Shown here piece by piece: positions 4,554 to 43,055 of a stretch of DNA of 43,253 bases. A model generated the notes under the pieces. It searched no databases. It was not told the DNA's origin and saw nothing but the letters and a program-made list of their open reading frames with translations. Source of the stretch: an uncultured Planctomycetia bacterium (lineage in GTDB: Bacteria > Omnitrophota > Gorgyraeia > Gorgyraeales > Gorgyraeaceae); assembly GCA_964479825.1 (NCBI GenBank), contig CAYZNX010000001.1, positions 1-43,253 on the forward strand, given 5' to 3'. The position numbers and the translations under genes were made by a program. The first letter of the stretch is position 1. Each line of letters starts with the position of its first letter.

Positions 4554-5143
4554 AAAGCTATATAAGGGAAAATCGTGAAACGTTTAAAGGATTGTTGGAT
4601 AATATTATTGTTACTGATCGTTCAAATTCTCTTTCTCATTTAGACGATGCATTTGAAAAGTCTATAAATATGATTATTGGGCGTGCTAAATCTGGCGGAA
4701 AACTTTTATTCATCGGTAACGGCGGAAGCTCTTCGATTGCAAGCCATATGGCTATTGATTTTTGGAAAAATGGGGGTGTACGAGCCCTTGCCTTTAATGA
4801 TGGCGTTCTCTTGACCTGTCTTAGCAATGATTACGGATACGAACACGTATTTGAAAAATCAATCGAGATGTTTGCAGAAGAAAAAGATATTTTGATTGCT
4901 ATCAGTAGTTCTGGTAAATCTGAGAATATTTTACGTGGTGTAACGGCCGCGAGTAAAAAGGGATTAAAGATTATGACTCTTTCAGGGTTCGATAAAGATA
5001 ATCCACTGAGGAGATTAGGGGATATAAACTTTTATGTGCCCTCAGTGAATTACGGGCACGTGGAAATAATGCACCTTTCTATCTGCCATTGTTTCGTTGA
5101 TACAATTATAGAGTTGAAAAATGGATCTATACAGGATAGATAG
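4550..5143 (+). CDS. gmhA: Sedoheptulose-7-phosphate isomerase (SIS domain)
   Basis: LLFIGNGGSSSIASHMAIDF and ISSSGKSENIL are GmhA/SIS hallmarks. It is 197 aa and sits next to the HldE-like gene. Confidence 0.8.
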   Translation: MKSYIRENRETFKGLLDNIIVTDRSNSLSHLDDAFEKSINMIIGRAKSGGKLLFIGNGGSSSIASHMAIDFWKNGGVRALAFNDGVLLTCLSNDYGYEHVFEKSIEMFAEEKDILIAISSSGKSENILRGVTAASKKGLKIMTLSGFDKDNPLRRLGDINFYVPSVNYGHVEIMHLSICHCFVDTIIELKNGSIQDR

Positions 5144-6188
5144 CCACAAACTTATTTATCATGTTCATCGCGTTCATGATTGGTTGGACGGAAAGTTAAT
5201 TTATCCTCTCTATATGGAGATAGGCCCTGCCGGAGCGTGCAACCACCGGTGCACATATTGCGGACTTGATTTCATGGAATACCAGCCTAGATATCTGGAT
5301 GCCGGGATGCTAAAAGAAAGACTTTCAGAATTAGGGAAGCTGGGGTTAAAAAGCATTATGTATGCAGGAGAAGGAGAGCCGTTTTTACACAAGGATATAA
5401 CAGACATAATTGGCCATACAAAAAATTCAGGAATAGATGTAGCAGTAACTACAAATGGGGTGTTATTTAAAAGAGAGATTGCCAATAATACCCTTGGCTA
5501 TATGGAGTGGATTAAGGTAGGTCTTGAGGGGGCGACTAAAGAAACGTACGCAAAAATACACCGTTGTAACCCCGACGATTTTGATAAAGTCATTAGCAAT
5601 ATATCATATGTTGCTGAATTAAAAAGAAGAGAAAAATATAACTGTACCCTGGGCGTGCAGTTTTTGTTGTTGCCTGAAAATTGCCATGAAGTAGTTAGTC
5701 TAGCCAAGATGGCCAGGGATATCGGCCTGGACTACCTGGTGGTAAAGCCCTATTCACAGCATATTCAAAGCAAGACAACAATATACAGTTCTGTCAAATA
5801 TAGTGATTATGAATACCTCAAGGATGAGTTAGAGAAATTCAACACAAATGGTTTCAACGTTATATTCAGGATACATACGATGGAAAAATGGGACAACAAG
5901 GGGCGAAATTATAAGCGTTGTTTTGCGCTTCCGTTCTGGTCATATATAGACGCCGGAGGCAATGTCTGGGGGTGTAGTGTCTACCTCGGTGATAAAAGGT
6001 TTTTATACGGTAATATTTATGAACAATCATTTAAAGACATCTGGGAAGGGGAAAAACGCTTGCAGTCGCTTCGTTGGGCTGAAGAAGAACTTGATATTTC
6101 TCAGTGTAGGATCAACTGCAGGATGGATGAGATAAATAGATATCTCTGGGATTTAAGAAGTTTCCCTGCACATGTGAATTTTATATAA
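5121..6188 (+). CDS. Radical SAM enzyme with a Cys-rich (SPASM/twitch-like) C-terminal region
   Basis: CxxxCxxC is present in GACNHRCTYCG, followed by GEGEPFL. C-terminal cysteines occur in CFALPFW...GNVWGCSVY...CRINCR. The protein ends in HVNFI. Confidence 0.8.
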   Translation: MDLYRIDSHKLIYHVHRVHDWLDGKLIYPLYMEIGPAGACNHRCTYCGLDFMEYQPRYLDAGMLKERLSELGKLGLKSIMYAGEGEPFLHKDITDIIGHTKNSGIDVAVTTNGVLFKREIANNTLGYMEWIKVGLEGATKETYAKIHRCNPDDFDKVISNISYVAELKRREKYNCTLGVQFLLLPENCHEVVSLAKMARDIGLDYLVVKPYSQHIQSKTTIYSSVKYSDYEYLKDELEKFNTNGFNVIFRIHTMEKWDNKGRNYKRCFALPFWSYIDAGGNVWGCSVYLGDKRFLYGNIYEQSFKDIWEGEKRLQSLRWAEEELDISQCRINCRMDEINRYLWDLRSFPAHVNFI

Positions 6189-6192
6189 TCAT

Positions 6193-7023
6193 ATGGATCA
6201 AAAACAGATGTTAGGTTTGCAAGAGAAGGTTAAAGAATTAAGAAGGTTGATATTGAAAACAATTTGTGAGGGTGGAGGAGGGCATATCCCTGCTTCGCTT
6301 TCAATCGTAGAGATATTGACTGTTCTTTACCACAATATCCTGAATATCGACCCCCGAAACCCTAAGGACCCTCAAAGAGATAGGTTCATATTGAGTAAAG
6401 GGCATGCCTGTGTGGCATTATATGTAATCCTTGCTGATAGAGGGTTCTTTGATAGACGGCACCTTAATACTTTTGGCAGGAGAGGAACAATCCTGGGCGG
6501 ACACCCGGATATGCACATGGTGCCGGGCGTTGAGGCTTCTACCGGGGCATTGGGTCATGGTTTTCCTTTTGGCGTAGGCATGGCATTGGCAGGCAGATTG
6601 GATAAAAGAAAATACCGCGTATTTATCCTTTTGGGCGATGGAGAATGCCAGGAAGGGTCTGTGTGGGAGGCCGCTCTTTTTGCGCCCCAACACAAGTTGG
6701 ATAATTTAGCAGTTATAATAGATTACAATAAATTGCAGGCAATGGACAGGCTGGAAAAAATAGTTTCATTAGAACCGCTGGCTGATAAATGGAAGGCGTT
6801 TGGATGGGAAGTGAGAGAAGTTGACGGGCATGATATTTCAGCACTGGAGGATGTTTTTAAGACAATCCCTTTTGTTTCAGATAAACCTAATATGATAATT
6901 GCCCATACGATTAAGGGCAAAGGGATTTCTTATATGGAAGGAGAGCCTCTCTGGCATTACCGCTTGCCTAATGCAGAGGAAATGAAGATTTTATGTAGTG
7001 AATTGGGGTTGAGTGATGTTTAG
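6193..7023 (+). CDS. Transketolase, N-terminal (ThDP-binding) subunit
   Basis: GGHIPASLSIVEIL, SKGHA and ILLGDGECQEGSVWEA are classic motifs of the transketolase N-terminal half. At 276 aa it is the split form. Confidence 0.85.
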   Translation: MDQKQMLGLQEKVKELRRLILKTICEGGGGHIPASLSIVEILTVLYHNILNIDPRNPKDPQRDRFILSKGHACVALYVILADRGFFDRRHLNTFGRRGTILGGHPDMHMVPGVEASTGALGHGFPFGVGMALAGRLDKRKYRVFILLGDGECQEGSVWEAALFAPQHKLDNLAVIIDYNKLQAMDRLEKIVSLEPLADKWKAFGWEVREVDGHDISALEDVFKTIPFVSDKPNMIIAHTIKGKGISYMEGEPLWHYRLPNAEEMKILCSELGLSDV

Positions 7024-7026
7024 AAA

Positions 7027-7968
7027 ATGAGAAACGCATATATATCTGCTTTATATGATTTAGCCAAGGAGAATAAACAGATACTTGCTCTGGTTGCTGA
7101 CAACGGCGCCATTGTTTATGATAAATACCGGCAGGACTTCTCTGATCAATTTATAAACTTTGGCATTTCTGAAGCAAACATGGTTAGTGTGGCGGCGGGA
7201 CTTGCTTGTTGTGGCAAGATACCTTTTGCCTATACCATCTCCTGCTTTATTACTATGCGGGCCTTTGAGCAGGTCAGGAACGACGTTTGCCTGCAGAGAA
7301 TGAACGTTAAGCTGGTAGGCATCGGGGCAGGTTTTGTCTATAGCAATTTAGGTCCTACACATCATGCTACAAAGGATATTGCCCTTATGCGCATTCTGCC
7401 TAATATGACAGTCTTTTCTCCTTGTGACGCATTAGAGACAGGATACGCCACGTTTGCAGCTGCGCAAATTAATGGTCCTGTATATCTGCGTTTGTCAACT
7501 GGTGGAACCCCGAAAATCTATAAAAAAGATTACGAATTTAAAGTTGGACGCGGAGTCACTATAAAAAAAGGCACAGATATTGCTATCATTGCTACCGGCG
7601 CTATAGTGCACGAGGTTCTGCAGGCAGTAGATGAGTTAGAAAGTTCTGGTATTTCCGTCAGGTTAATAAATATCCATACTATAAAACCCATTGATGAAGA
7701 GATTATTCTCAAGGCAGCCCAACAGACCCAGGCCGTCCTCACTGTTGAGGAGCATAGCATTTTAGGGGGATTAGGAAGTGCAGTAGCCGAAGTCCTGGCT
7801 GAAAATAATGGCCTACCCGTCAAATTTAAACGTTTGGGGTTAAATGGTGTTTTTGCTTCAGGGTATGGGTCTTATCAGGAGATGAAGCAGATGAACGGCC
7901 TCTCTAAAAAGGATATTGCGCGAGAAGCAATGGTCTTGCTTGAAGACAAGCCTAACCTGGTTAAATAG
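7027..7968 (+). CDS. Transketolase, C-terminal (pyrimidine-binding) subunit
   Basis: FINFGISEANMVSVAAGLA, GPTHHATKDIALMRILPNM and TVEEHSILGGLGSAV are present. It immediately follows the N-terminal subunit. Confidence 0.85.
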   Translation: MRNAYISALYDLAKENKQILALVADNGAIVYDKYRQDFSDQFINFGISEANMVSVAAGLACCGKIPFAYTISCFITMRAFEQVRNDVCLQRMNVKLVGIGAGFVYSNLGPTHHATKDIALMRILPNMTVFSPCDALETGYATFAAAQINGPVYLRLSTGGTPKIYKKDYEFKVGRGVTIKKGTDIAIIATGAIVHEVLQAVDELESSGISVRLINIHTIKPIDEEIILKAAQQTQAVLTVEEHSILGGLGSAVAEVLAENNGLPVKFKRLGLNGVFASGYGSYQEMKQMNGLSKKDIAREAMVLLEDKPNLVK

Positions 7969-8111: not shown

Positions 8112-8774
8112 ATGGGAAAGCTATTAAATGTTATAACTCCATTACATAAGAAGACAAAAAGGGACTATATTGGCAGGATGATGGATGAGAAGGTGGCCTG
8201 TTCAAAGATAGCCAGAAGGTATGATAAAGATTACTGGGACGGAGATAGGAGATATGGCTATGGTGGATATAGATATGATGGCCGCTGGGAGGTTGTAGCC
8301 AGGAAGCTGATAGAACTCTATAGTTTAGCTAACGATGCCAAAATCTTGGATGTTGGCTGCGGAAAAGGTTTTTTGCTCTATGAGTTTAAGAAACTTTTGC
8401 CTGATGCAACTGTGAAAGGGTTCGATATTTCGCAGTACGCTATAGAAAACGCAAAAGAAGAAATTAAGGATGCTCTATTTGTTCATAGAGCAGAAAAGAG
8501 TTATCCTTTTAAAGATAAAGAATTCGACTTTGTTATATCAATAACTACACTGCATAACCTCTATATAAATGAATTGAAGTCAGCCTTAAAAGAGATAGAA
8601 AGGGTGGGAAAAAATAAATATATCACAATGGAAAGTTACAGAAACGAACATGAGCTGTTTAATTTACAGTGCTGGGCATTAACCTGCGAGTCATTTTTCA
8701 GTCCCCAAGAGTGGGTATGGTTGTTTAATGAATTTGGATATACTGGAGATTATGAATTCATCTATTTTGACTAG
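8112..8774 (+). CDS. Class I SAM-dependent methyltransferase
   Basis: Motif I is ILDVGCGKGFLLYE, with the later motif FDFVISITTLHNL. It is 220 aa. Confidence 0.8.
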   Translation: MGKLLNVITPLHKKTKRDYIGRMMDEKVACSKIARRYDKDYWDGDRRYGYGGYRYDGRWEVVARKLIELYSLANDAKILDVGCGKGFLLYEFKKLLPDATVKGFDISQYAIENAKEEIKDALFVHRAEKSYPFKDKEFDFVISITTLHNLYINELKSALKEIERVGKNKYITMESYRNEHELFNLQCWALTCESFFSPQEWVWLFNEFGYTGDYEFIYFD

Positions 8775-8796: not shown

Positions 8797-9867
8797 ATGG
8801 GCAATCTATATACAAGAATGAAAATATTTCATTTCAAGGATAAGATAGATTCTTTACCTAAATCAATCAATAAGATAATGCCCCCTGTCCATATAAGGAT
8901 CAAACCAACAAATATATGTAACCATAATTGTTCATACTGTGCGTATAGAGTAAGCAATTTACAACTTGGCAAGGATATGGTGATAAGAGACCAGATCCCA
9001 TGGGAAAAGATGATGGAGGTTTTAGATGATATAGTGGATATGGGGGTAAGATCGGTTACCTTCAGCGGGGGCGGAGAGCCATTTTGTTACCCACATTTGT
9101 TGGAAACCGTTAAGAAGCTATCTCAAACACCCGTAAAATTCGCAGCCTTAACAAATGGAGCAAAATTGCAGGGAGAATTAGCAGAGCTTTTTGCTCACCG
9201 TGGTAGCTGGTTACGAATTTCTATAGATGGATGGGATGATGAAAGTTACTCAGAATACAGAAGTGTTGCTTATGGAGAATTCAGCAAAATAATCAGGAAT
9301 ATTAAGGATTTTAAAAGATATGGCGGTAAATGTTATTTGGGCGTATGCATTATTGTTGATAAGAAAAACGCCCCTCATATTTATGAGTTAATGGAGAAGT
9401 TAAAGGCCAGTGGTATTGACAGTGTCAAGGTGGCACCCTGCATTGTAAGCAACGCTGCCCGAAAGAATAACGAATATCACAAACTTATATTTGACCGAGT
9501 AAAAGAACAGATAGAACAGGTATTAAGTGGACTTGCCGGTAAAGGATTTGAAGTGTTCGATTCATATCACGAGCAATTAGAGACTTTTGAGAAACGATAC
9601 TCATGGTGCCCTTACTTGCAGATTTTGCCAGTTATCGGTGCTGATCTTAATATATATTCATGCCAGGATAAGGCCTATAACCTTAATCATGGATTGATCG
9701 GCTCAATAAAGGATCAAAGCTTCAGGGATTTCTGGTTTTCTGATAAAAATAAATTTTTCAAAATAGATCCTTCAAAGGTTTGTAATCACCATTGTGTTGC
9801 CAATGCAAAAAATAAACTTGTTCTGGAATATCTTGATGCCGATGAGGAACATTTAGACTTTGTATAG
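8797..9867 (+). CDS. Radical SAM enzyme with a Cys-rich C-terminal region, paralog of 5121..6188
   Basis: NICNHNCSYCAY and GGGEPFC are present. C-terminal cysteines occur in CPYLQ...LNIYSCQDK...CNHHCV. It ends in HLDFV, matching the HVNFI tail of the paralog. Confidence 0.8.
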   Translation: MGNLYTRMKIFHFKDKIDSLPKSINKIMPPVHIRIKPTNICNHNCSYCAYRVSNLQLGKDMVIRDQIPWEKMMEVLDDIVDMGVRSVTFSGGGEPFCYPHLLETVKKLSQTPVKFAALTNGAKLQGELAELFAHRGSWLRISIDGWDDESYSEYRSVAYGEFSKIIRNIKDFKRYGGKCYLGVCIIVDKKNAPHIYELMEKLKASGIDSVKVAPCIVSNAARKNNEYHKLIFDRVKEQIEQVLSGLAGKGFEVFDSYHEQLETFEKRYSWCPYLQILPVIGADLNIYSCQDKAYNLNHGLIGSIKDQSFRDFWFSDKNKFFKIDPSKVCNHHCVANAKNKLVLEYLDADEEHLDFV

Positions 9868-9892
9868 AAAATCTGATAGAAAGAGTAAAAAG

Positions 9893-11206
9893 ATGCTTAC
9901 TCAACACGATATATTGTTAAGAACATTTCCCAATAAACCAATACCACCATATATAGAGCGCGGTGAAGGTATATATCTATACACTAAAGATGGAAGAAAA
10001 TTGTTAGATACCACTGGAGGATTTACTGCTCACGCAATACTTGGTTGGTCAAACAAAAAAATTATTGAGGCAATGAAAAAACAGTTAGATAAAATTACTC
10101 ATATTGACTATAAGGTATATTCAGATGAAAACAGAGATAAATTGGCAGAATTGTTACTATCACGTGCTGAACATAGTTTAAATCGTGTTTATTTTGCGGG
10201 AAACTCTGGCGGGGAAGCCTGTGAAGCTGCTATGAAACTTAGTTATCAATACCATTATGATTTGGGCAAAAGAGAAAAAACATGGTTCATCTCTCGTTAT
10301 CAATCATACCACGGTTCTTCCACAGATGCCCTTGCTGTGGGAGACAGATCTAATCTGGATTTTTACAAGCCATTATTACCGAAAAATAGGGCAAAGATTT
10401 CAGAACACAATCAATATCGCCATAAGATGAAAGATGAATCTTTGGATGACTATGCCAAGAGGTGTGCCAAAGAACTTGAAGATAAGATACTTGAAATAGG
10501 CCCAGAAAAAGTCTGTGCATTCATTGGCGAAACAATGATGGGCGGTTTGATTGGCGATGTACCGCCTGCACCTAATTACTGGAAGAATATACGAAGGGTA
10601 TGCGACAAATATGATGTGCATTTAATATTAGATGAAGTTTGGTGCGGGACGGGGACTAGTGGAAAAGTTTATTGTTGCGATTGGGATGGGGTAACACCAG
10701 ATTTCCTTTTTATAGGGAAAACTCTTGCCGCCGGCTATGCCCCATTAAGTATAGTGCTTACCAACGATAAAGTTGAAAAGGTTTTTAAGGAAGGACAAGG
10801 GCGAATTCAGCATTCCACTACTCACCAGGGGCATTCACTATCTGTGGCTGCAGCACTGGAGGCTCAAAGTATCATCCATACTAATGAGATGTTAAATCAT
10901 GTTTGTAAGATGGGAGAGTTCTTAAGAAACACGCTTAGCTCCGAATTGGGTTCGCATCCATTTTTTGCGAACGTTAGAGGTAGAGGATTAAGAAATTCTA
11001 TTGAATATAACTGCCCTAATCAACACGACTTTGGTATGAAATTGGCTCAAGTAATGGAAGAAGAGCACAAGATATTGATAAGTGGAAAATGGCATCGGGT
11101 ATGTTTCTCTCCGGCGCTAAATATTAAACAAGAGGAATTAGACTTAGTTTTAGATCGTTTCATTAAAACTTTCAAAAAGATAGCAAATAGTTGGCCTACC
11201 AGCTGA
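9893..11206 (+). CDS. Class III PLP-dependent aminotransferase
   Basis: IERGEGIYLYTKDGRKLLD, ILDEVWCGTGTSGK and FIGKTLAAGYAPLS (candidate PLP lysine) are present. ATG at 9893. The ORF track extends to the TTG at 9860. Confidence 0.75.
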   Translation: MLTQHDILLRTFPNKPIPPYIERGEGIYLYTKDGRKLLDTTGGFTAHAILGWSNKKIIEAMKKQLDKITHIDYKVYSDENRDKLAELLLSRAEHSLNRVYFAGNSGGEACEAAMKLSYQYHYDLGKREKTWFISRYQSYHGSSTDALAVGDRSNLDFYKPLLPKNRAKISEHNQYRHKMKDESLDDYAKRCAKELEDKILEIGPEKVCAFIGETMMGGLIGDVPPAPNYWKNIRRVCDKYDVHLILDEVWCGTGTSGKVYCCDWDGVTPDFLFIGKTLAAGYAPLSIVLTNDKVEKVFKEGQGRIQHSTTHQGHSLSVAAALEAQSIIHTNEMLNHVCKMGEFLRNTLSSELGSHPFFANVRGRGLRNSIEYNCPNQHDFGMKLAQVMEEEHKILISGKWHRVCFSPALNIKQEELDLVLDRFIKTFKKIANSWPTS

Positions 11207-11318
11207 CTTATTATAGGAGATTGCTGAAAAGGCCTAAACAGGGCAGCAATCTCAAAGGTCGCTGACGTATTTTTAGGAGTTTTTCAGAGGCCTCTATAGA
11301 TAACAAATATTTTTTGGT

Positions 11319-11849
11319 ATGAATATTAAAGAAAAAAAACAAGAAGTATTTTTCATAGAAGAAGATATCATCAAGATCAGTAACAAGGATATAAAATTCC
11401 TTAAGGCTAAGGCAACGGGTAGCAGAAGAGGGCAGGCACGTCTGTGTGCGCACAGAAGCAATGAAAGTTCTCTACATGAGATGATAATTGCTTTGACCAA
11501 AAAGACTTATGTTCGGCCACATAAACATCTTGGGAAAAGCGAATCATTTCATATTATCAAGGGAAATCTTAAGGTAGTAATTTTTGATGAACAGGGTAAT
11601 GTTTGCAAAGTCATAAATATGGGTGATTATCGTTCAAGAGATATGTTTTATTACAGACTTCCAGAAGCCTATTTCCACACTGTGATACCTTTGTCTGATT
11701 TTGTTGTTTTCCATGAAACGACAAACGGGCCTTTTAAACCTGAAGATACCATCTATGCAGAATGGGCGCCTTTGGAAGATGAGGGCGAAGCCAAGACCTC
11801 TTACTTAGATAAATTAATGGCTCAGTTGGGGATGGATAAGAAAAGATGA
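11319..11849 (+). CDS. WbuC-like cupin-fold protein
   Basis: RRGQARLCAHRSNESSLHEMIIALTKKTYVRPHKH...SESFHIIKGNLKVVIFDEQG resembles the cupin family recurrent in O-antigen loci. Confidence 0.55.
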   Translation: MNIKEKKQEVFFIEEDIIKISNKDIKFLKAKATGSRRGQARLCAHRSNESSLHEMIIALTKKTYVRPHKHLGKSESFHIIKGNLKVVIFDEQGNVCKVINMGDYRSRDMFYYRLPEAYFHTVIPLSDFVVFHETTNGPFKPEDTIYAEWAPLEDEGEAKTSYLDKLMAQLGMDKKR

Positions 11850-13720
11850 AGGACGATAATCTTCTCTTAATCGAGTATTGCAACATCCTGAAATCAAAAT
11901 ACAGGTTAAACAAAAGAATTCTTCTTGTGCAGATACCGCAGTTGATTCTTAAGTCTTTTAACTCTGAAGTTGCAAGAGAAAAAGGTTATTATATTTTTCC
12001 GCCTGTAGGATTGCAGTATTTATACGAAGCGATAAAGAAAAGGGATTTAGATGTCAAGATACTTGATTTAAACTTTATGCTTTTGAAGAAAGTATTTGAA
12101 GATGGCTTTGATCATCGACGGTGGATTGATATCTTGAAAGAATGTCTTGATTCTTTTGACCCGGCAATTGTCGGAGTGTCATGTATGTATGATTTAGGTA
12201 TCCAGCCTTTGATGGAGGTGCTTAAGTTTTTACGCCAGCATAATCGGTCGATTACCATCGCTGGCGGCGTAATCCCTACTTATGAATGGGAAAGCCTGCT
12301 GCGGCAAGATTTATGTCATTTCGTGATCAAAAAAGAGGGGGAAACCCGCATTAATTTTCTTTTTGACTACTTAACCGATAAAAACTTAAATTATGGTCCC
12401 TGCTCAGGGGTGTGCTTTAAATATAATGATTCTTATCGCGAAACAGAAGGAGAAAGAAAAGAGGTTGTTTTTGATACGGATCTAATCGATAGCTATTCTC
12501 TGGTCAACATCAGAGAGTATTGTAAATACGGTTCTTTAAATCCTTTTTCCAGAATCGCAGGATTACAAGATTCTCCTTTTGCGGCAATTCAGATGAACAG
12601 GGGATGTCGTGGCGTATGCACTTTTTGTTCGGTACGTGATTTTATCGGTAAAGGAGTGCGCAAAAGGTCGGTAGAAAAAGTCTTATCCGAGATGAATTTT
12701 TTAATAAATAAGTGTGGCGTAAAGCATTTTGAATGGTTAGATGATGATATGCTTTTTTATAAAAAAGAATTTCAGAACCTTCTGCAAAAAATAATCGACC
12801 AAAAATGGAAAATTACATGGTCAGCTAATAACGGTCTGATTGCCTCATCTATAGATGAAGAGATGATGCGACTAATGAGAGATTCTGGCTGTATAGGTTT
12901 CAAAATTGGGATAGAGACTGGTAATGCCGAAATGCTAAAGAAAATTAAGAAGCCAGTTACATTAGATACATTTAGAAGAGTTTCTTGTATATTTAAGCGC
13001 TATCCCGAAATTTTTGTTGGCGGCAACATTATGCTGGGGTTTCCTCAGGAAAAATTTTACCAGATGATGGATTCTTTCCGGTTTCTTCTGGAGTTGGATT
13101 TAGACTGGGGGGCTTTTACCATATGTCAAGCTATTAGAGGGGCAACAGCTTTTAGTGATTCTGAGGATTATTTTACAAAACAGATAAGTTCAAATGATGA
13201 AAATATAAAAAATTTTATTCCAACGAGGGAGTCTTTGGACGGGCGGCTTTCTACCAAAACCGATATTTTTAAAGGTTTGGAGGTTTTTAAAATAAATCCT
13301 GACACTGCCCCTGACGAAGAACAGATTAAAGAAATATGGTTTACCTTCAATCTTGTTGGGAATTTTATCAATAATAGAAATTTAAAACCAGATGGTAAAG
13401 TTGAAAAATTTATTTCTTGGGTGGAAATGGCTCAAGTTGCTTATCCCACAAATGCATATATGAGCCTTTTTTTGGCTCTGGCTTATATAATTAAAGGCGA
13501 CCATGATAAATCCAAAGATTACTATAATAAGGCAGCATTATGCTGTAACACCGATTATTGGCGGGAAAGATTTGCTTCTTTTGGGTTAACTGAGGTATTG
13601 AATAATTTTCCTCAAACTAAATCTGGAGTTTTTGACAGATTAGAACATTTACGCCTTTCTGTTTTTTCCTATGAAAATCTGGACGTTTTTTTAAGCTTTA
13701 ACTATAATGACTTAGTATAA
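11846..13720 (+). CDS. Cobalamin-binding-domain radical SAM enzyme (class B type) with a long C-terminal extension
   Basis: The N-terminal B12-like domain has PPVGLQYLYEAIKKRDLDVKILD...IVGVSCMYD...ITIAGGVIPT. The radical SAM motif is NRGCRGVCTFCSV. A tail of about 200 aa follows. Confidence 0.75.
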   Translation: MKDDNLLLIEYCNILKSKYRLNKRILLVQIPQLILKSFNSEVAREKGYYIFPPVGLQYLYEAIKKRDLDVKILDLNFMLLKKVFEDGFDHRRWIDILKECLDSFDPAIVGVSCMYDLGIQPLMEVLKFLRQHNRSITIAGGVIPTYEWESLLRQDLCHFVIKKEGETRINFLFDYLTDKNLNYGPCSGVCFKYNDSYRETEGERKEVVFDTDLIDSYSLVNIREYCKYGSLNPFSRIAGLQDSPFAAIQMNRGCRGVCTFCSVRDFIGKGVRKRSVEKVLSEMNFLINKCGVKHFEWLDDDMLFYKKEFQNLLQKIIDQKWKITWSANNGLIASSIDEEMMRLMRDSGCIGFKIGIETGNAEMLKKIKKPVTLDTFRRVSCIFKRYPEIFVGGNIMLGFPQEKFYQMMDSFRFLLELDLDWGAFTICQAIRGATAFSDSEDYFTKQISSNDENIKNFIPTRESLDGRLSTKTDIFKGLEVFKINPDTAPDEEQIKEIWFTFNLVGNFINNRNLKPDGKVEKFISWVEMAQVAYPTNAYMSLFLALAYIIKGDHDKSKDYYNKAALCCNTDYWRERFASFGLTEVLNNFPQTKSGVFDRLEHLRLSVFSYENLDVFLSFNYNDLV

Positions 13721-13764
13721 CGGTATATTAGTATAGTTACTGTAACTTCTTATATGGGAGATTG

Positions 13765-15246: not shown

Positions 15247-15488
15247 AAATAGCATCTACTGCAGAAAGTGCGCGTATTATTTATTTATCGATTCGTGAGT
15301 TGGAGAAATCCGCCATGGATAGCCCCTTAGGTAAGGGCATCCAGTTAGGATGTAATCTTTTTGAATACATGATTCAAAATAAAATGGATGCTATTGAATT
15401 TGATTCATACGGGTTATTACCATCAACTATAATAGGCAATAACGATTTGATAACAATTGAAGATTTATTTAGTAAGTACAAAAAGTAA
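15228..15488 (+). other. Open frame that may be a frameshifted C-terminal continuation of the preceding radical SAM gene. The ORF track lists 15300..15488.
   Basis: This frame is open from 15228 and overlaps the last 19 nt of the upstream ORF. The two frames meet at an A6 run (15231-15236). There is no convincing RBS before the TTG at 15300. Confidence 0.3.
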
Positions 15489-15542
15489 CCTAAAATTTCT
15501 GTTAGTACACTAAATACATCTTAAATGTTTTTAGGAGGTTTT

Positions 15543-16214: not shown

Positions 16215-16221
16215 TATAAAA

Positions 16222-33144: not shown

Positions 33145-33643
33145 CGATGCAATCAATGTCCTGGCTGCGGAATGCAGGAATCCACATTTAGGACTTCCCG
33201 AGTCGGTATTTCTATTGCTCTCGCGTCTGACGCCACTAGTGAATGTCGATCTCTTGATCAAGGATGACATGGGCCGGACCCTTCTGACGTGGCGCGATGA
33301 CATCTACTATGGATCCGGTTGGCACATACCTGGCGGCATAGTCCGATTTAAAGAGACCATACACGAGCGCATTATAGCTGTGGCAAGGCTGGAACTGGAC
33401 TGTGAAGTTGTTTTTGAACCCTGCCCGGTGGCGACCAACGAGTATATTGCCCAAAAGCGATGCGAGCGAGGGCATTTTATTTCGTTTCTCTATCGCTGCA
33501 AACTGGCCACTGAGCCGCCGGAAAAGTTAAAATATCAGGAAGGGAACCCTCAGCCGGGTATGTACGCTTTCTTCCGACAGGCCCCGGAAAACCTTTTGAA
33601 TATCCATGATGTATACAGAAAATACATCAATAGCGAAGGATGA
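33134..33643 (+). CDS. Nudix-fold hydrolase resembling GDP-mannose mannosyl hydrolase (WcaH/Gmm-like)
   Basis: TPLVNVDLLIKDDMGRTLL...GWHIPGGIVRFKETIHERIIAVARLELDCEV parallels the WcaH pattern TPLVSLDFIV...[28 protein letters not shown], including R-L in place of the canonical Nudix R-E. Confidence 0.6.
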   Translation: MNLDDAINVLAAECRNPHLGLPESVFLLLSRLTPLVNVDLLIKDDMGRTLLTWRDDIYYGSGWHIPGGIVRFKETIHERIIAVARLELDCEVVFEPCPVATNEYIAQKRCERGHFISFLYRCKLATEPPEKLKYQEGNPQPGMYAFFRQAPENLLNIHDVYRKYINSEG

Positions 33644-33650
33644 GACGCAT

Positions 33651-34718
33651 ATGTCCGATTTAGAATTAAAGAACCATACTGAGCGCGTAAAACGTGAAAA
33701 ACTGAGAGAAGAAAAGCCTCTCGTCTACGAGAAGATCATCAAGCTTAGAGATATGCAAAGGCGCGAAGAGTGTACGTCCCGGATAGATATCGGATATAAC
33801 TATGCATGCAATCTCAAATGCAAACACTGTATGGCTGACACGTTTCAGAAGAAAGACAGGTCATTGACCCCTGCGGACTTGCGAAGCATAGCTGAACAGG
33901 CCGATGCCCTTGGCTGGTGCCAGTTCAATATTTCCGGCGGGGAACCCTTGATTTTGAAAAACTTTGACGAGGTGCTAAAGGCGCTCATGCCGGACAGGTT
34001 CCATATCGGAATAAGTACGAATGGTTACTTTCTGACGGAAGAGAAGGCGAGACATTTGAAATCAATAGGATTGGACAAGGTAATGATAAGTCTTGATAGT
34101 TATAATGAAGCCCTTCACGATGCGAACCGCGCCGATAACGGAGCGTACGTAAAGGCAATCAATGCGATCTGGAACGCAAAGAATGCCGGGCTCGATACGA
34201 TAATACAGCATGTGATAACACATCAGAATGCCAGAACAGAGGAAACAGTCAAGCTGGCAAAATTTGCCCAGGATAACGGTTTTTCTCTTGACCTGGTCAT
34301 TGCCAAGGCCCTTGGTGAATGGGAGGGGCGCCACGAAGTATTGATTGACGCTGAGGACGCGAAATTTCTTTATGAACTGCACAAGAAATATCCGGCAGCC
34401 AGGCGCGACGTCTTTCCTTCATACGGAATGTACGGAGGCTGCGGCGTGCTAAAGAGATGTTTTCATATCTCCCAATACGGCGACGTCTTCCCCTGCGTGT
34501 TTATGCACATAACCATCGGAAACATCTTTGAGGATTCACTGAAGACGATTGTTGACCGCGGAATGAAGATTCGGCATTTTCGGGATCATTCCTCGATCTG
34601 TCTCTCTGGAGAAGATAGATCTTTTATAAATAAATACATGTCGAGGTTTTACGGGAAGCCCCTGCCTGTTGACTACCGCGAGATATTTACAGATAAGGAC
34701 GATTTTGTCCAGGAGTGA
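33651..34718 (+). CDS. Radical SAM enzyme with a Cys-rich C-terminal region
   Basis: YACNLKCKHCMAD and SGGEPL are present. C-terminal cysteines occur in GGCGVLKRCFHISQYGDVFPCVFM. ATG at 33651. The ORF track starts at 33606, inside the upstream gene. Confidence 0.8.
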   Translation: MSDLELKNHTERVKREKLREEKPLVYEKIIKLRDMQRREECTSRIDIGYNYACNLKCKHCMADTFQKKDRSLTPADLRSIAEQADALGWCQFNISGGEPLILKNFDEVLKALMPDRFHIGISTNGYFLTEEKARHLKSIGLDKVMISLDSYNEALHDANRADNGAYVKAINAIWNAKNAGLDTIIQHVITHQNARTEETVKLAKFAQDNGFSLDLVIAKALGEWEGRHEVLIDAEDAKFLYELHKKYPAARRDVFPSYGMYGGCGVLKRCFHISQYGDVFPCVFMHITIGNIFEDSLKTIVDRGMKIRHFRDHSSICLSGEDRSFINKYMSRFYGKPLPVDYREIFTDKDDFVQE

Positions 34719-34720
34719 AA

Positions 34721-35692
34721 ATGCCCTCACTTGAGAAGTATTCAGCCCTTAAGACAAAGAGGGTCAGCCTGCGCGATGCAATACCGCTGGTAAAGCCCTT
34801 TACTATCCTTCTGGAACCGACAAGTATCTGCAACTTCAAATGCACCTGCTGTTTCCAGAACGAGCCGGATTTTCATTCGTATCTTCCAAGGGGACACATG
34901 AAAATCGAGGATTTCAGAAAGATTGCGGACGACCTGGCTACATGGAAGGGCGCCAGAATACGGGTCATACGGATCATTGGTTTTGGCGAACCATTACTCA
35001 ATCCATTGACACCTCGTATGGTGAAATACTGCAAAGAGCTCGACATTGCAGAACGCATCGAAATCACAACGAATGCGTCGCTTCTCACTCCAGCGGTCTC
35101 AGAGGAGTTGATTGACGCAGAGCTGGATTACATTCGCTGCTCTGTATATTCGCTTGATCAGAAACGCCATGAGGCGCTGACGCAAAGCCGAATTAGCATT
35201 GAAGCGATAAAAGATAATATTGTCACATTAAAGACGTTACGCGCATCCAGAGGAGCTCATAAGCCATTCATATACGCAAAGATGCTTGAGAGCCGGGATC
35301 CGTCAGAGAACGGTCTATTTCTAGAAGCGTATTCGAATATTGCTGACGAGGCAGCTTTGGAAAAGCCCCATCAATGGCTTTCTTGCGCGGATTCCTGCGG
35401 TCCTGCAATGCGGCACGTCTGCCCCCAGCCGTTTAAGATGATGAGTGTTCATTTTAACGGCGATGTTATACTCTGCGATCCTGATTGGAAGGGGAACACA
35501 TGCGTCGGGAATGTCCTTATAGAGAACATCTCTTCCATTTGGGGAGGCAGTAAGATGCGTGAGTTCTGGAGGATGCAGCTCGAGAAGAGAAGGCGCGAAA
35601 ATAAAAGCTGCCGGAAGTGCTCTTTTCTTATCGATGAGTACGTTATGGATAATCTAGACGGGGTTTCTCCGGATGTTCTGGGAGGCCACTGA
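34721..35692 (+). CDS. Radical SAM/SPASM-like enzyme, paralog of 39558..40574
   Basis: SICNFKCTCCFQ, GFGEPLLN and TTNASLLTPAVSEELID are present. The C-terminus has CPQPF...GDVILCDPDW...CRKCSF. AGGAG lies 5 nt before the ATG at 34721. Confidence 0.8.
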   Translation: MPSLEKYSALKTKRVSLRDAIPLVKPFTILLEPTSICNFKCTCCFQNEPDFHSYLPRGHMKIEDFRKIADDLATWKGARIRVIRIIGFGEPLLNPLTPRMVKYCKELDIAERIEITTNASLLTPAVSEELIDAELDYIRCSVYSLDQKRHEALTQSRISIEAIKDNIVTLKTLRASRGAHKPFIYAKMLESRDPSENGLFLEAYSNIADEAALEKPHQWLSCADSCGPAMRHVCPQPFKMMSVHFNGDVILCDPDWKGNTCVGNVLIENISSIWGGSKMREFWRMQLEKRRRENKSCRKCSFLIDEYVMDNLDGVSPDVLGGH

Positions 35693-35693
35693 T

Positions 35694-36887
35694 ATGAAGA
35701 GATTTCTCGAGACCGTCTCGGAGACTTCCCGTCCTGTAGTTGTGTTCGGAGCCTCGGTTATTGGCAAGATAATTCTCGATTCGCTTGACATATTAAATAT
35801 CCGTCTAGCCGCCTTCTGTGACAACGATGTTCGAAAACAGAAGGAGTTGTTTCATGGGCATAGGGTCATTTCTTTTGAAAAGATGCGCGAGGATTATCCC
35901 GACGCGCTTGTAATCATAGCTGCCAGACGGTATTTTGATGAGATACGAAAGCAGCTTTCGGCTGCTGGGTTCAAGGATGTGTTCAGCGATTCAGATATTG
36001 TAAGCTGCATTGATTTCAAGAAGACGCCGCATTCAAAACTCGGAAGAATTATGTGGTATCTGGCCAGAATCGGCAAGCTTTCTGAAATGATGGAACTCCC
36101 TTCAGATAGTTTGCATATTCCCCGGCTGAACGTGGTTATTACCACGCGTTGCACCTTGAAATGCGAAGACTGTTCCAGTCTTATGAGGCATTACCGAAAG
36201 CCCTCTGATTTTGATGCATCAAAGATAATCGCCTCTCTTGACAGAATACTGTCGTGCGTCGGCCTCATCTATCACGTCGAGATCCTCGGGGGCGAACCGT
36301 TCTTACACAAGGAGCTTCCACCGATCGCCAGGCACCTGCTTGATTCGGGAAAAATATTGCATGTCGATGTTATCACAAATGGAACCATTGTGCCTTCTGA
36401 GAAGGAGCTTAATTCCCTGAAACATGAAAATTTATCCGTCGTCATAGATGATTATGGAGCGCTGTCGAAGAAGATGGTTTCTCTATCGGATGCATTACAG
36501 CGTCATGGTGTTGACTTCCGCGTCAACCGACATTGGGCCTGGGCAGACCTCGGCAGCTTCGAATCAAGAAATCGCCCCGAAGAAGAGCTGCGGGAACTTT
36601 TTGCCAGATGTAATTTTAACTCGTGCGTCGAACTGCTTGACGGAACCCTGTATCACTGCCCGCGCTCTTCGCATGGGACAAAGACAGGGCTTGTTCCGGA
36701 ATATCGTGGCGATTCAATCGATATTCTTGATGTGCCTTCAGGCAATGCCGTTCTGAGAGAATCTCTCAGGGCATTTTTCTACGATATGAGGTTTCTCCGC
36801 GCATGTGATCACTGCGATGGAAATACGGGTGATTCCCTGAAGCTCATTCCCGCAGAACAACATACTCGAGGCGTAACCAATGACTGA
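35694..36887 (+). CDS. Rossmann-like N-terminal domain fused to a radical SAM core, paralog of 41847..43055
   Basis: The N-terminus is VVVFGASVIGKIIL...FCDNDVRKQKELFHGHRVISFE. The core has TTRCTLKCEDCSSL and LGGEPF. The tail has CNFNSCVELLDGTLYHCP...CDHCDG. GGGAGG precedes the ATG at 35694. Confidence 0.75.
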   Translation: MKRFLETVSETSRPVVVFGASVIGKIILDSLDILNIRLAAFCDNDVRKQKELFHGHRVISFEKMREDYPDALVIIAARRYFDEIRKQLSAAGFKDVFSDSDIVSCIDFKKTPHSKLGRIMWYLARIGKLSEMMELPSDSLHIPRLNVVITTRCTLKCEDCSSLMRHYRKPSDFDASKIIASLDRILSCVGLIYHVEILGGEPFLHKELPPIARHLLDSGKILHVDVITNGTIVPSEKELNSLKHENLSVVIDDYGALSKKMVSLSDALQRHGVDFRVNRHWAWADLGSFESRNRPEEELRELFARCNFNSCVELLDGTLYHCPRSSHGTKTGLVPEYRGDSIDILDVPSGNAVLRESLRAFFYDMRFLRACDHCDGNTGDSLKLIPAEQHTRGVTND

Positions 36888-38040
36888 TATAAAGAGATGC
36901 CGCGTCTGCGGAAATATATTTACGGCCGAAAGCATGCTCAAACTGCCGGACATGCCGGCGGCCGTGCAGAACCTGCCGGCCAAGAAAGACGAGGCTATTG
37001 CTTCCGGTATCGTTCTCGACATCAGGCAGTGTTCATTTTGCGGACTTGTCCAGCTCCTCAACGCGCCGGTCCCATATCATAAAGATGTTATCAGGCCAGG
37101 AGGAGCGTCTCTTTCCATGAGAGCTGGGCAGTATGATCAATTCAAAATCTTTGTCGAACGGTTTTCTCTTATGAATAAGAACATAATTGAGGTCGGTTCT
37201 GGACGCGGCGAATATCTCTCGATTTTGAAAGAACTGCCTGTCAAGGCCTTTGGAATGGAGCACAATCCTGATTTTGTTAGGATTGCAAACGAAAAAGGCT
37301 TGAAGACATTTCAGGCATACCCCACAGATTTGCGTGGGTCGCCCGATGATATCATGTTTGATGCCTTTATTTCAATCAACGTCCTTGAGCATGTCCCTGA
37401 TCCGGCCGTGTTCCTGCGGTCCTGCGCAAACCTCCTTACGGAGAAGGGCGTCGGAATGATCAGTGTTCCTGACTTCGAATACGAGTTGAGTGATAACGGC
37501 ATATTCAGTTTTATGAGCGACCATCTGTCGTACTTTTCAGCGGATACCCTGCGTAATGCGCTAAGTATCAATGGCTTTGACGTCGTTGAGATATTCAAAA
37601 ACAGGGATTTGAATGTCATTACCGCATATGTTATTAAACGCAGGCAATGTGATCTGGCCGCGGCCATAGACAAGAGTCATGAGTTCAATGAGACTATCAA
37701 CGGTTACATAAAGACAATCCTGGACAGCGGCGGTCGCATTGCAGTCTGGGGAGCGAGCCATCTTGCATTCAGCATTATTGCATCGTCAAGGACAGCGAAG
37801 ATGATCTCGTACCTAGTTGATTCCTCTCCGGTTAAGCAGGGAAGGTTCTCACCGGCATCCGGCCTCGAAATCTTTCCACCGGAGCATCTGCGCGAGGATC
37901 CGGTTAACGCGATTCTGATTATGTCTCCTGAATATTCAACAGAGATCGCGGCAGGCATTGAGAAACAGTATTCAGACCTTATTCATCATATTGCGACGTT
38001 CATAGACGGTGGTCTTAAGACGATAAGGAAGCTGAAATGA
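36880..38040 (+). CDS. NDP-sugar C-methyltransferase of the TylC3/EvaC-like architecture
   Basis: The N-terminal Zn-ribbon is CRVCGN...CSFCGLVQL. The class I MTase motif is IIEVGSGRGEY. The C-terminal Rossmann-like domain is RIAVWGASHLAF...LVDSSPVKQGRFSPASGLEIFPPEHL. Confidence 0.7.
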   Translation: MTDIKRCRVCGNIFTAESMLKLPDMPAAVQNLPAKKDEAIASGIVLDIRQCSFCGLVQLLNAPVPYHKDVIRPGGASLSMRAGQYDQFKIFVERFSLMNKNIIEVGSGRGEYLSILKELPVKAFGMEHNPDFVRIANEKGLKTFQAYPTDLRGSPDDIMFDAFISINVLEHVPDPAVFLRSCANLLTEKGVGMISVPDFEYELSDNGIFSFMSDHLSYFSADTLRNALSINGFDVVEIFKNRDLNVITAYVIKRRQCDLAAAIDKSHEFNETINGYIKTILDSGGRIAVWGASHLAFSIIASSRTAKMISYLVDSSPVKQGRFSPASGLEIFPPEHLREDPVNAILIMSPEYSTEIAAGIEKQYSDLIHHIATFIDGGLKTIRKLK

Positions 38041-39527
38041 TTTTGATTAATCCTGTAGCCCCTAATAGAATGGGGATGATTTCAAGATATACCGATGCCA
38101 CTCTTCCAATGGGCATTGGGACATTGGCAGGGTATCTCTTGGCAAAAGGCAGGCAGGCCAAAATCATAGACGAGTTGAGTGGCCCGATGCGGCTATCTGA
38201 TGTTAATAGCCATATCAAGCAGCTTAGCAAACCCTATATATTCGGCATTAGCTGTCTGACAATAAATATATCGAGGGGGTATGAGATAGCAAGGATGCTC
38301 AAAAGAGAGTATCCCGATGCCAAGGTCATATTGGGAGGCATACACGCCACAGCGCTGCCCGAAGAGGCCCTTGCCAAAGGAAATATAGTAGACATAGTGG
38401 TAAGAGGAGAAGGCGAAGAGACGCTTTTATTATTATATGATACCATAAAAAACAATAGAAACTATTCTGACATAGCAGGAATATCATTTAAGGAAAACGG
38501 CAAAATAATACATAATCCTGCTCGCCCATTAATAGAAGATTTAAATACTATACCTCGTTTTCCTTACGAGTTATTCGCCGATAAATACAGCGGCTTAGGC
38601 CATCTTATGACATCGAGGGGATGTCCATATGATTGTATATTTTGTAGCCAGAGGCTCATATCAGGAAAAAGATATAGATTTGCGTCATGCGAATCTGTTA
38701 TCGAGACAATAGATTTGCTTATAAACAAATACAATCAACGCAACCTTGGTTTTTACGACGACAATTTCCTTGTGAACAAAAAAAGAGTAAGGTCATTGTG
38801 CGAACTGATAATACAGAAGGGCTTTAATCTCAGGGCTGCCTTCAGTTGCCAGACAAGGGCGGATAATGTCGATAGAGAGACTCTTGCCTATCTGAAGGAT
38901 GCGGGATTCGCCCATATCGGACTGGGAATAGAGACAGGCTCCGAGAGGTTGATGAAAATACTAAACAAACGAGAGACTGTAAAGGTTAACATCGAAGCCG
39001 TAAAAATGATAAAAGAAATGGGTTTTGGGACTAGTGGCTTTTTTTTGTTTGGAATACCAACCGAGACGCAAAGAGAGAGGTTCCAGACATACAGGCTCGC
39101 CAAAAAGATGAGACTTGATTATGCAAAGTTTAATAATATAGTCCCATATCCGAAAACCAGACTCTGGGAGATAGCGCAAAAAGAAGGCACTTTGAACATC
39201 GCGAAGGATTGGGAAAACTTCAATTCTGTCGAGGGGGTCGTGAAAGGGGTATTTTCCAAAGCGAAATTACCGTATATACCAATTAATACCACAGAGAAGC
39301 AATTACGAAGGGATATGGTGCGGTCAAATTTTTACTTTTATCTAGCGCATCTTTCTTCTCTCTTCGTATCGAAGCAGAATAAGTCTGACTGGTTTAGTCT
39401 TTCCGAAAGATGGTATTTTAACCCGAAAGAATTGTTTTATCTTTTCATACTCCTGCTGAAAGTCGCACTTAATTGCGTAATTGTCTTTGATGTGAAATGG
39501 TTTATCGAAGAATTGAGGGACAGATGA
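38037..39527 (+). CDS. Cobalamin-binding-domain radical SAM enzyme (class B type)
   Basis: LPMGIGTLAGYLLAKGRQAKIIDE...IFGISCLT...VILGGIHAT is followed by TSRGCPYDCIFCSQ. Confidence 0.8.
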   Translation: MILINPVAPNRMGMISRYTDATLPMGIGTLAGYLLAKGRQAKIIDELSGPMRLSDVNSHIKQLSKPYIFGISCLTINISRGYEIARMLKREYPDAKVILGGIHATALPEEALAKGNIVDIVVRGEGEETLLLLYDTIKNNRNYSDIAGISFKENGKIIHNPARPLIEDLNTIPRFPYELFADKYSGLGHLMTSRGCPYDCIFCSQRLISGKRYRFASCESVIETIDLLINKYNQRNLGFYDDNFLVNKKRVRSLCELIIQKGFNLRAAFSCQTRADNVDRETLAYLKDAGFAHIGLGIETGSERLMKILNKRETVKVNIEAVKMIKEMGFGTSGFFLFGIPTETQRERFQTYRLAKKMRLDYAKFNNIVPYPKTRLWEIAQKEGTLNIAKDWENFNSVEGVVKGVFSKAKLPYIPINTTEKQLRRDMVRSNFYFYLAHLSSLFVSKQNKSDWFSLSERWYFNPKELFYLFILLLKVALNCVIVFDVKWFIEELRDR

Positions 39528-39557
39528 CACTAATAAAGATTGAAAGGGGTATTAAGT

Positions 39558-40574
39558 ATGGCTAAAATCAGTTACACTTTTAAAAAGGCAAGTGAAAGAA
39601 CCAGACTTGAAACAGTAATCCCTCTTGAAACTCCCTTTGAGCTGCAGTTGGCTGTCGCAAGCTCTTGCAACTTTAGATGTGTTTATTGTTACTGGTTCAA
39701 CCCAAAAGTACTAAAGAAACTCAATATTAAAAAAGGAGTAATGGATTTCGATCTTTATAAAAAAATTATTGACGATCTTGATGAATTTCCTCAAAAGTTA
39801 AAAGTTATACGTTTGATGAGAGAAGGTGAACCATTGTTAAATAAAAGATTCACCGATATGGTTCGCTATGCCAAGAAAAAGCAGCCTTCCGTAAATGTGG
39901 ATACGACTACGAATGCAAGCCTGCTGACTCCGGAACTTTCGGATGAGATCATAGATTCCGGGCTGGATAAGATAGGTATTTCCCTCCAGGGCATGAACGT
40001 CGAAGCCTATAAAAGGATATCAGGCGTTGACATCGATTTCGACAGATTGCTTGAGAATGTGATCTATTTTTGCGAACATCGAAAAAATTGCCAAGTCTAT
40101 ATCAAGATACATGACATCGGCGTTAATGAAGCCGAAAAGCAAAAATTCTTTCAATTGTTTGACAAATATGCCGACGAAATGTTTGTTGAACACATTTTTC
40201 CAACATGGCCCGATTTAGATCTTTCAAAGGTCACGAACAATGATGGGATTGGCTACTATGGCAATCCAGTTTCCGACTCACCCATAAAAATATGCAACTT
40301 GCTGTTTTATGATTTGACTATTAGTTTCAATGGGATCGTCACCGCATGCGCACTTGATTGGGAAGGAAAAACCAATTTTGGCGATGTAAACCACCAGAGT
40401 TTGTATAAAATCTGGAACGGTAAAAAGCATAATGATTTTAGACGTATGCATCTAAGTGGAAACAGGTTTAGTAATGACCTATGTGGGAAATGCGATGCCT
40501 TAGAGTATTGCGAACCCGATATAATTGATGATTACGCCGACATGCTCCTTGAAAGATACAAAGATTTGCCATAA
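39558..40574 (+). CDS. Radical SAM/SPASM-like enzyme, paralog of 34721..35692
   Basis: SSCNFRCVYCYW, EGEPLLN and TTNASLLTPELSDEIID are present. The C-terminus has CNLLF...GIVTACALDW...CGKCDALEYC. ATG at 39558. The ORF track starts at the TTG at 39540. Confidence 0.8.
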   Translation: MAKISYTFKKASERTRLETVIPLETPFELQLAVASSCNFRCVYCYWFNPKVLKKLNIKKGVMDFDLYKKIIDDLDEFPQKLKVIRLMREGEPLLNKRFTDMVRYAKKKQPSVNVDTTTNASLLTPELSDEIIDSGLDKIGISLQGMNVEAYKRISGVDIDFDRLLENVIYFCEHRKNCQVYIKIHDIGVNEAEKQKFFQLFDKYADEMFVEHIFPTWPDLDLSKVTNNDGIGYYGNPVSDSPIKICNLLFYDLTISFNGIVTACALDWEGKTNFGDVNHQSLYKIWNGKKHNDFRRMHLSGNRFSNDLCGKCDALEYCEPDIIDDYADMLLERYKDLP

Positions 40575-40722: not shown

Positions 40723-40797
40723 ACTTGTATTCTAAAATGCTACGGGCGTGAGCCCGTAGAAATTTACTCTCGTGTTTGAAACTCATTACTGAATGAT

Positions 40798-41847
40798 ATG
40801 TATCCGTCTGGAAAATATATAGTTAGTATCGTTGTCCCTGTATTCAATGATGAAAAACGTATTGGGCGATGCATTGAGAGTGTTATCAAACAGACTTACA
40901 CAAATATCGATCTGATTCTGGTTGATGATGGTTCACAAGATCGTACAGGGAAAATATGCGACGAATACGCAGCAAAGGATCAAAGAATAAAAGTGATTCA
41001 TACCGATAATGTAGGAGTTGGAAGAGCAAGAAATTTAGGAATAAAACATACATGTGGGACTTTCATTTTCTTTTTGGATTCAGATGATTTTTTAGAAGTT
41101 TATGCCTTAGAACGGATGATTGATGGATATCATAAATCCAACGCTGACATTGTATTGGGTAATTTTTACATAAATGGTGAAAAGGTCAAAACGTGTTTTA
41201 ATCGTCCCCTTTCGAACGATAAGTTATTAAATTTATCAGAATTTATTAGCTATGTCAGGGGGTATTTGCAAAAACCACGAGGTACTTCAATCTTTGTTTA
41301 TGTGTGGGGGAAACTATTTAAATCCTCTATAATTAAAGATAACAGTCTTTGTTTTGATAGTGATTTGCATGTATATGAAGATACACTTTTTAATTTTAAA
41401 TACTTTCTATGGATTCAGAGTGCTTATTTCATAGAACAACCGTTGTATCACTATCAAGTAGATATGAGTTCAAAGTCGAAGGCTTTGAGGCTTACCAATG
41501 AGTTTTTAGGATATAAAAAAATGATTTATTCCATTGAGAAGTTTCTTGCAAAACATAATGTAAAGAAAGTGACGTTGGAGAAAGAAGTAGGACATTGCAT
41601 TGTCTCTTTTAGTATCAAAGTGATGATGCAGTTAGTGGAGCACTCTATGCACAAAGAGTTGCATATCTCATTTGCAGTGCTTAAGTCTATCTTTACTAAG
41701 ATGGTGCAGGACGCGGATATTCAAAAAAGCTTGATCCACTATTCTCCCACAGAAAAGGACAGTGTCATCATTCCAAAGCTAATGAAGTTACAATGGATAT
41801 CCCCCATCATATGGGTGTGTAAATTCAAACAGAAAAATAAGGATTAA
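40798..41847 (+). CDS. Family 2 glycosyltransferase (GT-A fold)
   Basis: VSIVVPVFNDEKRIGRCIESVIKQTYTNIDLILVDDGSQDRTGKICDEY is followed by the DxD-type FLDSDD. Confidence 0.85.
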   Translation: MYPSGKYIVSIVVPVFNDEKRIGRCIESVIKQTYTNIDLILVDDGSQDRTGKICDEYAAKDQRIKVIHTDNVGVGRARNLGIKHTCGTFIFFLDSDDFLEVYALERMIDGYHKSNADIVLGNFYINGEKVKTCFNRPLSNDKLLNLSEFISYVRGYLQKPRGTSIFVYVWGKLFKSSIIKDNSLCFDSDLHVYEDTLFNFKYFLWIQSAYFIEQPLYHYQVDMSSKSKALRLTNEFLGYKKMIYSIEKFLAKHNVKKVTLEKEVGHCIVSFSIKVMMQLVEHSMHKELHISFAVLKSIFTKMVQDADIQKSLIHYSPTEKDSVIIPKLMKLQWISPIIWVCKFKQKNKD

Positions 41848-43055
41848 TGATGCAATGTAACAACTCTATGGTTCAATTTGATTTTCATGCACTGCAGACA
41901 GCAGAAGTGCCTATTGTGATATTTGGTGCCAAGACGGTAGGGGAAGCGATCTATTATGAGTGCATGACCAGGGGTGTGAAGGTTACATGTTTTTGTGATA
42001 ATTTTATTGAGTTCACAAATAAGAAAAAATTTGGTTTAACAATTTTTCATCCTGATGCATTGAAAAACAGGTTTGATGACGCCATTTTTATTATTTCTGC
42101 GTGTGACATACAGGATGTCATCGCTCAACTGGTCAGTATAGGGTATAGTAAGTGGTATCCAGGCGGACTTCTTTTAAACAGTTTTGATGTTACTAAATAT
42201 CCTTTTAGCGCGTCGTATGATTTTGTGGAATACACCGTCAGTTCAGCGATATTGTCTCATGAAGGATATATGCATCCAGATAAAGTGTATCTTAGGAGTC
42301 TGGATATTATTATTACAGAAAAGTGCTCTTTGAAATGTGCAGATTGTTCAAACCTTGCCCAATATTATGATAACCCTAAAGATGACAATATAAATGATAT
42401 TTTAGCCTCGCTGGATGCTTTTTGTCATTATATCGATAAAGTCAATGAAGTTCGGGTCATAGGCGGGGAACCTTTTATGAACAAAGATATTTATGCGTTT
42501 CTCGTAAAACTGATTGAGATAGATAAGATTAGAAAAGTTCTCATATTTACCAACGGAACGATACTTCCTAGAAGCAACTATTTGGAGATTTTGGGGCATG
42601 AAAAAATACTGCTGATTATTACAGATTATGGTGCATTGTCTAAAAATTATGGTGCATTGATCCGGATATGTGAGGAAAATAGAATTGCTTATTATTCAGA
42701 AGTCGCAAATGGTTGGACGGATTGTGCCACAATACAGAAGCATGAACGGAGTGTAGAAGAACTGAAATCTATTTTTAAACGGTGCTGTGCAAAAAATCTT
42801 TTCACGCTCTCCAAAGGGAAAGTATTTCGGTGCCCATTTGCTGCGAATGTCGATAGACTGGGGGCCTCTCCTAAATTCAAAGGAGACTATATCAATGTTT
42901 TCGCGCGGCCAACCAAGCAGGATTATAAACGTTTTTTTCTGGAAAAATCCTTTCTTGAAGTTTGCGATTACTGCAATGGTCGGTTTTTTACTGACCCCGT
43001 GATTAAACCAGCCACTCAGTTGAATAAACCCTTGCACTATACTAAGTACGGTTAA
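41847..43055 (+). CDS. Rossmann-like N-terminal domain fused to a radical SAM core, paralog of 35694..36887
   Basis: The N-terminus is IVIFGAKTVGEAIY...FCDNFIEFTNKKKFGLTIFHPD. The core has TEKCSLKCADCSNL and IGGEPF. The tail has CCAKNLFTLSKGKVFRCP...CDYCNG. Confidence 0.75.
   Translation: MMQCNNSMVQFDFHALQTAEVPIVIFGAKTVGEAIYYECMTRGVKVTCFCDNFIEFTNKKKFGLTIFHPDALKNRFDDAIFIISACDIQDVIAQLVSIGYSKWYPGGLLLNSFDVTKYPFSASYDFVEYTVSSAILSHEGYMHPDKVYLRSLDIIITEKCSLKCADCSNLAQYYDNPKDDNINDILASLDAFCHYIDKVNEVRVIGGEPFMNKDIYAFLVKLIEIDKIRKVLIFTNGTILPRSNYLEILGHEKILLIITDYGALSKNYGALIRICEENRIAYYSEVANGWTDCATIQKHERSVEELKSIFKRCCAKNLFTLSKGKVFRCPFAANVDRLGASPKFKGDYINVFARPTKQDYKRFFLEKSFLEVCDYCNGRFFTDPVIKPATQLNKPLHYTKYG

Follow-up and report, generated by a model that had tools for sequence, protein, structure and literature searches.

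The 43,253-nucleotide window, the whole stretch of DNA that was analysed, comes from an uncultivated anaerobic bacterium and holds a 43-kb gene cluster for cell-surface sugars. Rather than one system, the cluster is a mosaic in which at least two cassettes, each mobile on its own, accompany a nonulosonic acid (NulO) module. The two cassettes, A (g2–g18) and B (g27–g38), are uncharacterised radical SAM cassettes that recur beside sugar-nucleotide genes in many bacterial phyla.

Census of the radical SAM genes

The window is tiled by 40 open reading frames of 100 aa or more, all on the + strand, to which every coordinate below refers. The CX3CX2C motif is present in exactly 10 of the 40; when each protein was shuffled, 1000 times over, the mean was 0.10 such frames and the maximum 2. 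All ten match Pfam PF04055 (Radical_SAM) with scores over its gathering threshold of 29.5, g35 being borderline at 30.3 bits. Together the radical SAM genes account for 30% of the coding length. These are the ten frames, with the same motif strings, that a sequence-only reading had singled out, although the start codons of g15, g33, g34, g35 and g38 lie 3–45 nt from those it gave. Its three cobalamin-binding-type enzymes were recovered with PF02310 (B12-binding; cutoff 32.1) in g14 (45.4), g15 (42.4) and g37 (63.3). The remaining seven proteins, without a B12-binding domain, have C-terminal Cys clusters, as that reading had also supposed: PF13186 (SPASM; cutoff 21.5) is above cutoff in g7, g33, g34 and g38, and Cys patterns are found in g11, g35 and g40.

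The inventory of other genes agrees largely with the same reading, which had listed four class I methyltransferases (g10, g16, g17 and g36), two aminotransferase types (class III and DegT) and few glycosyltransferases (one GT2 and one of the TIGR04372 family). Of the sugar-nucleotide genes that it described, NeuB and NeuC of the NulO set and glucose-1-phosphate cytidylyltransferase are above cutoff; those for heptose are only HldE/GmhA-like and below the curated cutoffs. The density of radical SAM genes is not unique: a Saganbacteria locus has eight in 21 kb.

Cassette A

In cassette A, a radical SAM gene adjoins a split transketolase, after which come a methyltransferase and another radical SAM gene; HldE/GmhA-like genes and B12-binding radical SAM enzymes are also present. 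The cassette is found again in Omnitrophota, Brocadiaceae, Magnetococcales and Planctomycetota. The regulator g2 (944–1558) joins an HTH_24 domain (Pfam, 5e-9) to a Rossmann-like domain at the C-terminus, of the type with which g35 begins. This C-terminal part scores 23.1 bits for Methyltransf_14 (cutoff 23.5), with a weak match to PglD_N; the protein also has a weak match to the N-terminus of NeuD and is below the MarR_EPS TIGR04176 cutoff (73.7 against 88). An Omnitrophota homologue, 64% identical, is annotated as HTH_24 plus C2185-like_N.

The nucleotidyltransferase g4 (2478–3008; Pfam CTP_transf_like) shares 47% identity with the N-terminal part of g5 (3015–4553), a nucleotidyltransferase–PfkB kinase fusion (Pfam CTP_transf_like, PfkB) that is HldE-like but has its domains in the reverse order to HldE. 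Both are below every cutoff (HldE 158/521, rfaE_dom_I 119/345 and rfaE_dom_II 116/181 bits). The SIS-domain isomerase g6 (4550–5143; Pfam SIS_2) is GmhA-like (gmhA 109 bits, cutoff 209) and has a homologue in three of six cassette A contexts. The heptose identity of these genes is tentative.

The radical SAM protein g7 (5121–6188; 355 aa; CNHRCTYC) has a SPASM/twitch domain (Radical_SAM 68.8 and SPASM 36.3 bits) and homologues in more than 5600 clusters at E ≤ 1e-30; nearly all of the 120 homologues listed are exactly 355 aa long, with 66–86% identity across phyla. The closest solved proteins by sequence are BlsE (6e-8) and DesII (7e-7); Foldseek also matches the g7 model to DesII (2.4e-13), but the model is poor (pLDDT 67.6). 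The split transketolase (6193–7968; Pfam Transketolase_N, Transket_pyr and Transketolase_C) consists of an N-terminal subunit, g8, and a pyrimidine-binding plus C-terminal subunit, g9, and in six of six contexts the pair adjoins a g7 homologue or a g11-type radical SAM gene that sits beside that homologue. The class I methyltransferase g10 (8112–8774; 220 aa; Pfam Methyltransf_31/11/25) belongs to a conserved five-gene core, with homologues of 220–221 aa in L012, L013, L095 and L096. The second radical SAM protein, g11 (8797–9867; 356 aa; CNHNCSYC; Radical_SAM 79.4 bits), has no PF13186 SPASM match and is 25% identical to g7, with which it shares its C-terminal Cys spacing (271/289/329/333 in g11, 267/285/329/333 in g7); homologues 69% identical are found in L012 and L013.

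A class III aminotransferase, g12 (Aminotran_3, 3e-74), and the WbuC-family cupin (DUF6016) g13 (11319–11849; cupin_WbuC 141 bits, cutoff 42) span 9860–11849, and DUF6016 is seen again in L012, L013, L094 and L095. The B12-binding enzyme g14 (11846–13720; 624 aa; CRGVCTFC; B12-binding 45.4 and Radical_SAM 58.2 bits) scores best in NCBIfam for a P-methyltransferase family (109 bits, cutoff 575); a 625-aa homologue, 72% identical, occupies the same position in the Omnitrophota locus L012. The second such enzyme, g15 (13762–15485; CPYDCGYC; B12-binding 42.4 and Radical_SAM 52.6 bits; 148 bits for the KedN5 subfamily, cutoff 700), is broken by a frameshift within a run of A near 15229–15240. The called frame stops at 15246, which leaves the final ~90 aa to a different frame (15216–15485); tblastn with P0250 finds both parts, in frame 1 (13759–15237) and frame 3 (15216–15485), and intact homologues are 570–593 aa long. 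The cassette ends (15525–18845) with the class I methyltransferases g16 and g17 (Pfam methyltransferase domains) and the TIGR04372-family glycosyltransferase g18 (17418–18845; 240 bits, cutoff 45); collinear homologues in L012 are 77% (g17) and 56% (g18) identical.

The NulO module and cassette B

Between the cassettes, g19 (18868–20661) is an ABC exporter in which membrane and ATPase domains are fused (ABC_membrane, ABC_tran), with seven hydrophobic segments. It may export or flip a lipid-linked glycan or a polysaccharide, and is below all NCBIfam cutoffs (HepA family 400/725, MsbA 334/602, PglK 241/1000). The NulO module g20–g25 (20658–26080; NCBIfam and Pfam) comprises NeuB with a SAF domain, a hydrolysing 2-epimerase (NeuC), a hexapeptide acetyltransferase, a DegT aminotransferase, a PseB/FnlA-like 4,6-dehydratase and a CMP-NulO synthetase. 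NeuB_NnaB (479, cutoff 400) and NeuC_NnaA (425, cutoff 236) are above cutoff; PseC (311/424), PseB (316/408) and PseF (104/206) are below. The 676-aa membrane protein g26 (26088–28118; ~12 hydrophobic segments in a hydropathy scan), with no Pfam or NCBIfam match, could be a polymerase, a ligase or a transferase of the GT-C type.

Cassette B, collinear across seven loci that represent about six phyla, combines four radical SAM genes and one C-methyltransferase with genes for CDP-glucose, a NeuB-like synthase, a ThDP carboligase of the YerE/JanthE kind and a KdsC-like phosphatase. The glucose-1-phosphate cytidylyltransferase g27 (G1P_cyt_trans 305.6 bits, cutoff 300.25) and the CDP-glucose 4,6-dehydratase-like SDR g28 (CDP_4_6_dhtase 231.5 bits, below the cutoff of 278.45) span 28141–29918, and their homologues flank the cassette in L004, L005, L007, L008 and L010. 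A GC3-rich island, g29–g36, opens with g29 (GC3 0.53) and closes with g36 (0.54). The PEP-condensing synthase g29 (30058–30906; 282 aa; Pfam NeuB 1e-67) lacks a Pfam SAF domain, scores 239 bits for NeuB_NnaB (cutoff 400) and is 39% identical to g20; homologues 51–90% identical occur in all seven loci.

The carboligase g30 (30906–32678; 590 aa) has three TPP domains and the ThDP motif GDG...N, and is far under all acetolactate synthase cutoffs. Its closest solved structure is JanthE (8rph), a YerE-like enzyme (PMC12188165), matched over the full length at E 2.8e-98, with AHAS behind at 6.7e-82. This carboligase and the split transketolase, ThDP enzymes that travel with the radical SAM genes, had been overlooked in the sequence-only reading. 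Loci related to cassette B also carry RfbH, the enzyme that produces the acceptor known for YerE. The span 32671–33643 holds g31, a 157-aa HAD phosphatase resembling KdsC and KDN-9-P phosphatase but below both cutoffs (98/107 for the KdsC subfamily, 106/180), and g32 (33116–33643), a small protein that weakly resembles NUDIX proteins (GDP-mannose mannosyl hydrolase, only 26 bits). Homologues of g31 are present in six of the seven loci (not L008), and of g32 in three.

Three radical SAM proteins of the cassette carry SPASM domains and are present in seven of seven loci: g33 (33606–34718, or from 33651 in the earlier call; CNLKCKHC; Radical_SAM 94.3 and SPASM 32.6 bits; 76–84% identity), closest among solved proteins to SkfB (1e-11), MoaA, BtrN and BlsE; g34 (34715–35692; CNFKCTCC; 56.2 and 43.2 bits; 58–82%), with seven C-terminal Cys; and g38 (39540–40574; CNFRCVYC; 63.8 and 48.5 bits; 63–71%), which is 30% identical to g34 over the full length and has a BtrN-like C-terminal cluster domain (BtrN C-terminal domain match 1e-10). 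The sugar C-methyltransferase g36 (36880–38040; 58–74% identity, 7/7 loci) has a Zn-ribbon, a SAM domain and a C-terminal domain (Methyltransf_13, Methyltransf_23 and Methyltransf_14), Methyltransf_13 at 23.6 bits being under its cutoff of 31.3. Among the cassette B loci compared, the B12-binding g37 (38037–39527; 496 aa; CPYDCIFC; B12-binding 63.3 and Radical_SAM 88.2 bits) is inserted between g36 and g38 in this locus alone; elsewhere the interval holds either no B12-binding radical SAM gene or another one with just 28% identity. An independent Logan contig matches 37307–40128, spanning g37, at 100% identity. The closest solved proteins to g37 are MgmA (9ccb, 6e-20) and AprD4 (3e-16), and it scores 205 bits for BchE (cutoff 481).

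The paralogues g35 and g40 share a twitch fold like that of SpeY, joined at the N-terminus to a domain that typifies sugar C-methyltransferases. For g35 (35673–36887; CTLKCEDC; the true start is likely 35694), the N-terminal Rossmann-like domain is of the Methyltransf_14/C2185-like_N/PglD_N type (Methyltransf_14 34.6 bits, cutoff 23.5, over residues 3–90 counted from 35694). The top Foldseek match of its AF2 model (pLDDT 86.6) is SpeY (7wzv; E 1.5e-13, TM 0.66; phmmer 4e-12). Its family, 2230 clusters (50% identity, E ≤ 1e-30), has invariant GAxxxG, DN, CX3CX2C and GGE residues and four C-terminal Cys, these four being family-invariant in both g35 and g40. The GT2 glycosyltransferase g39 (Glycos_transf_2, 4e-39) and g40 (41847–43055; CSLKCADC; Radical_SAM 39 bits, Fer4_12) span 40798–43055; g40 has the same two-domain architecture as g35 (29% identity over the full length), and Saganbacteria also pair a g40-like gene with an adjoining GT2.

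Family assignment and conserved linkage

Membership of characterised non-carbohydrate families would have refuted a role in sugar tailoring. All ten radical SAM proteins stay below the cutoffs of every named NCBIfam family, peptide maturase, cofactor and lipid families included, the best ratios of score to cutoff being those for BchE and KedN5 given above and 96/380 for W_rSAM_matur; no convincing RiPP precursor peptide was found in the intergenic gaps. The linkage to sugar-nucleotide genes, proposed earlier as a test, is kept in other genomes: for g33, g34, g35 and g38 in the seven collinear loci; for g7, g11 and g14 in Omnitrophota, Brocadiaceae, Magnetococcales, Planctomycetota and metagenome loci; for g15 elsewhere too; and for g37-like enzymes in at least 17 of 42 metagenome loci. 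Both refutation tests open to computation, on family and on linkage, came out in favour of the radical sugar tailoring that had been proposed, and that reading is supported, with the refinement that the locus is a mosaic.

Specific reactions of these enzymes, such as C-methylation or epimerisation, remain an inference. The best reading of the locus is that ThDP-branched sugars, activated as nucleotide sugars, are tailored by radical chemistry for use in a surface glycan; this chemistry is inferred and has not been shown.

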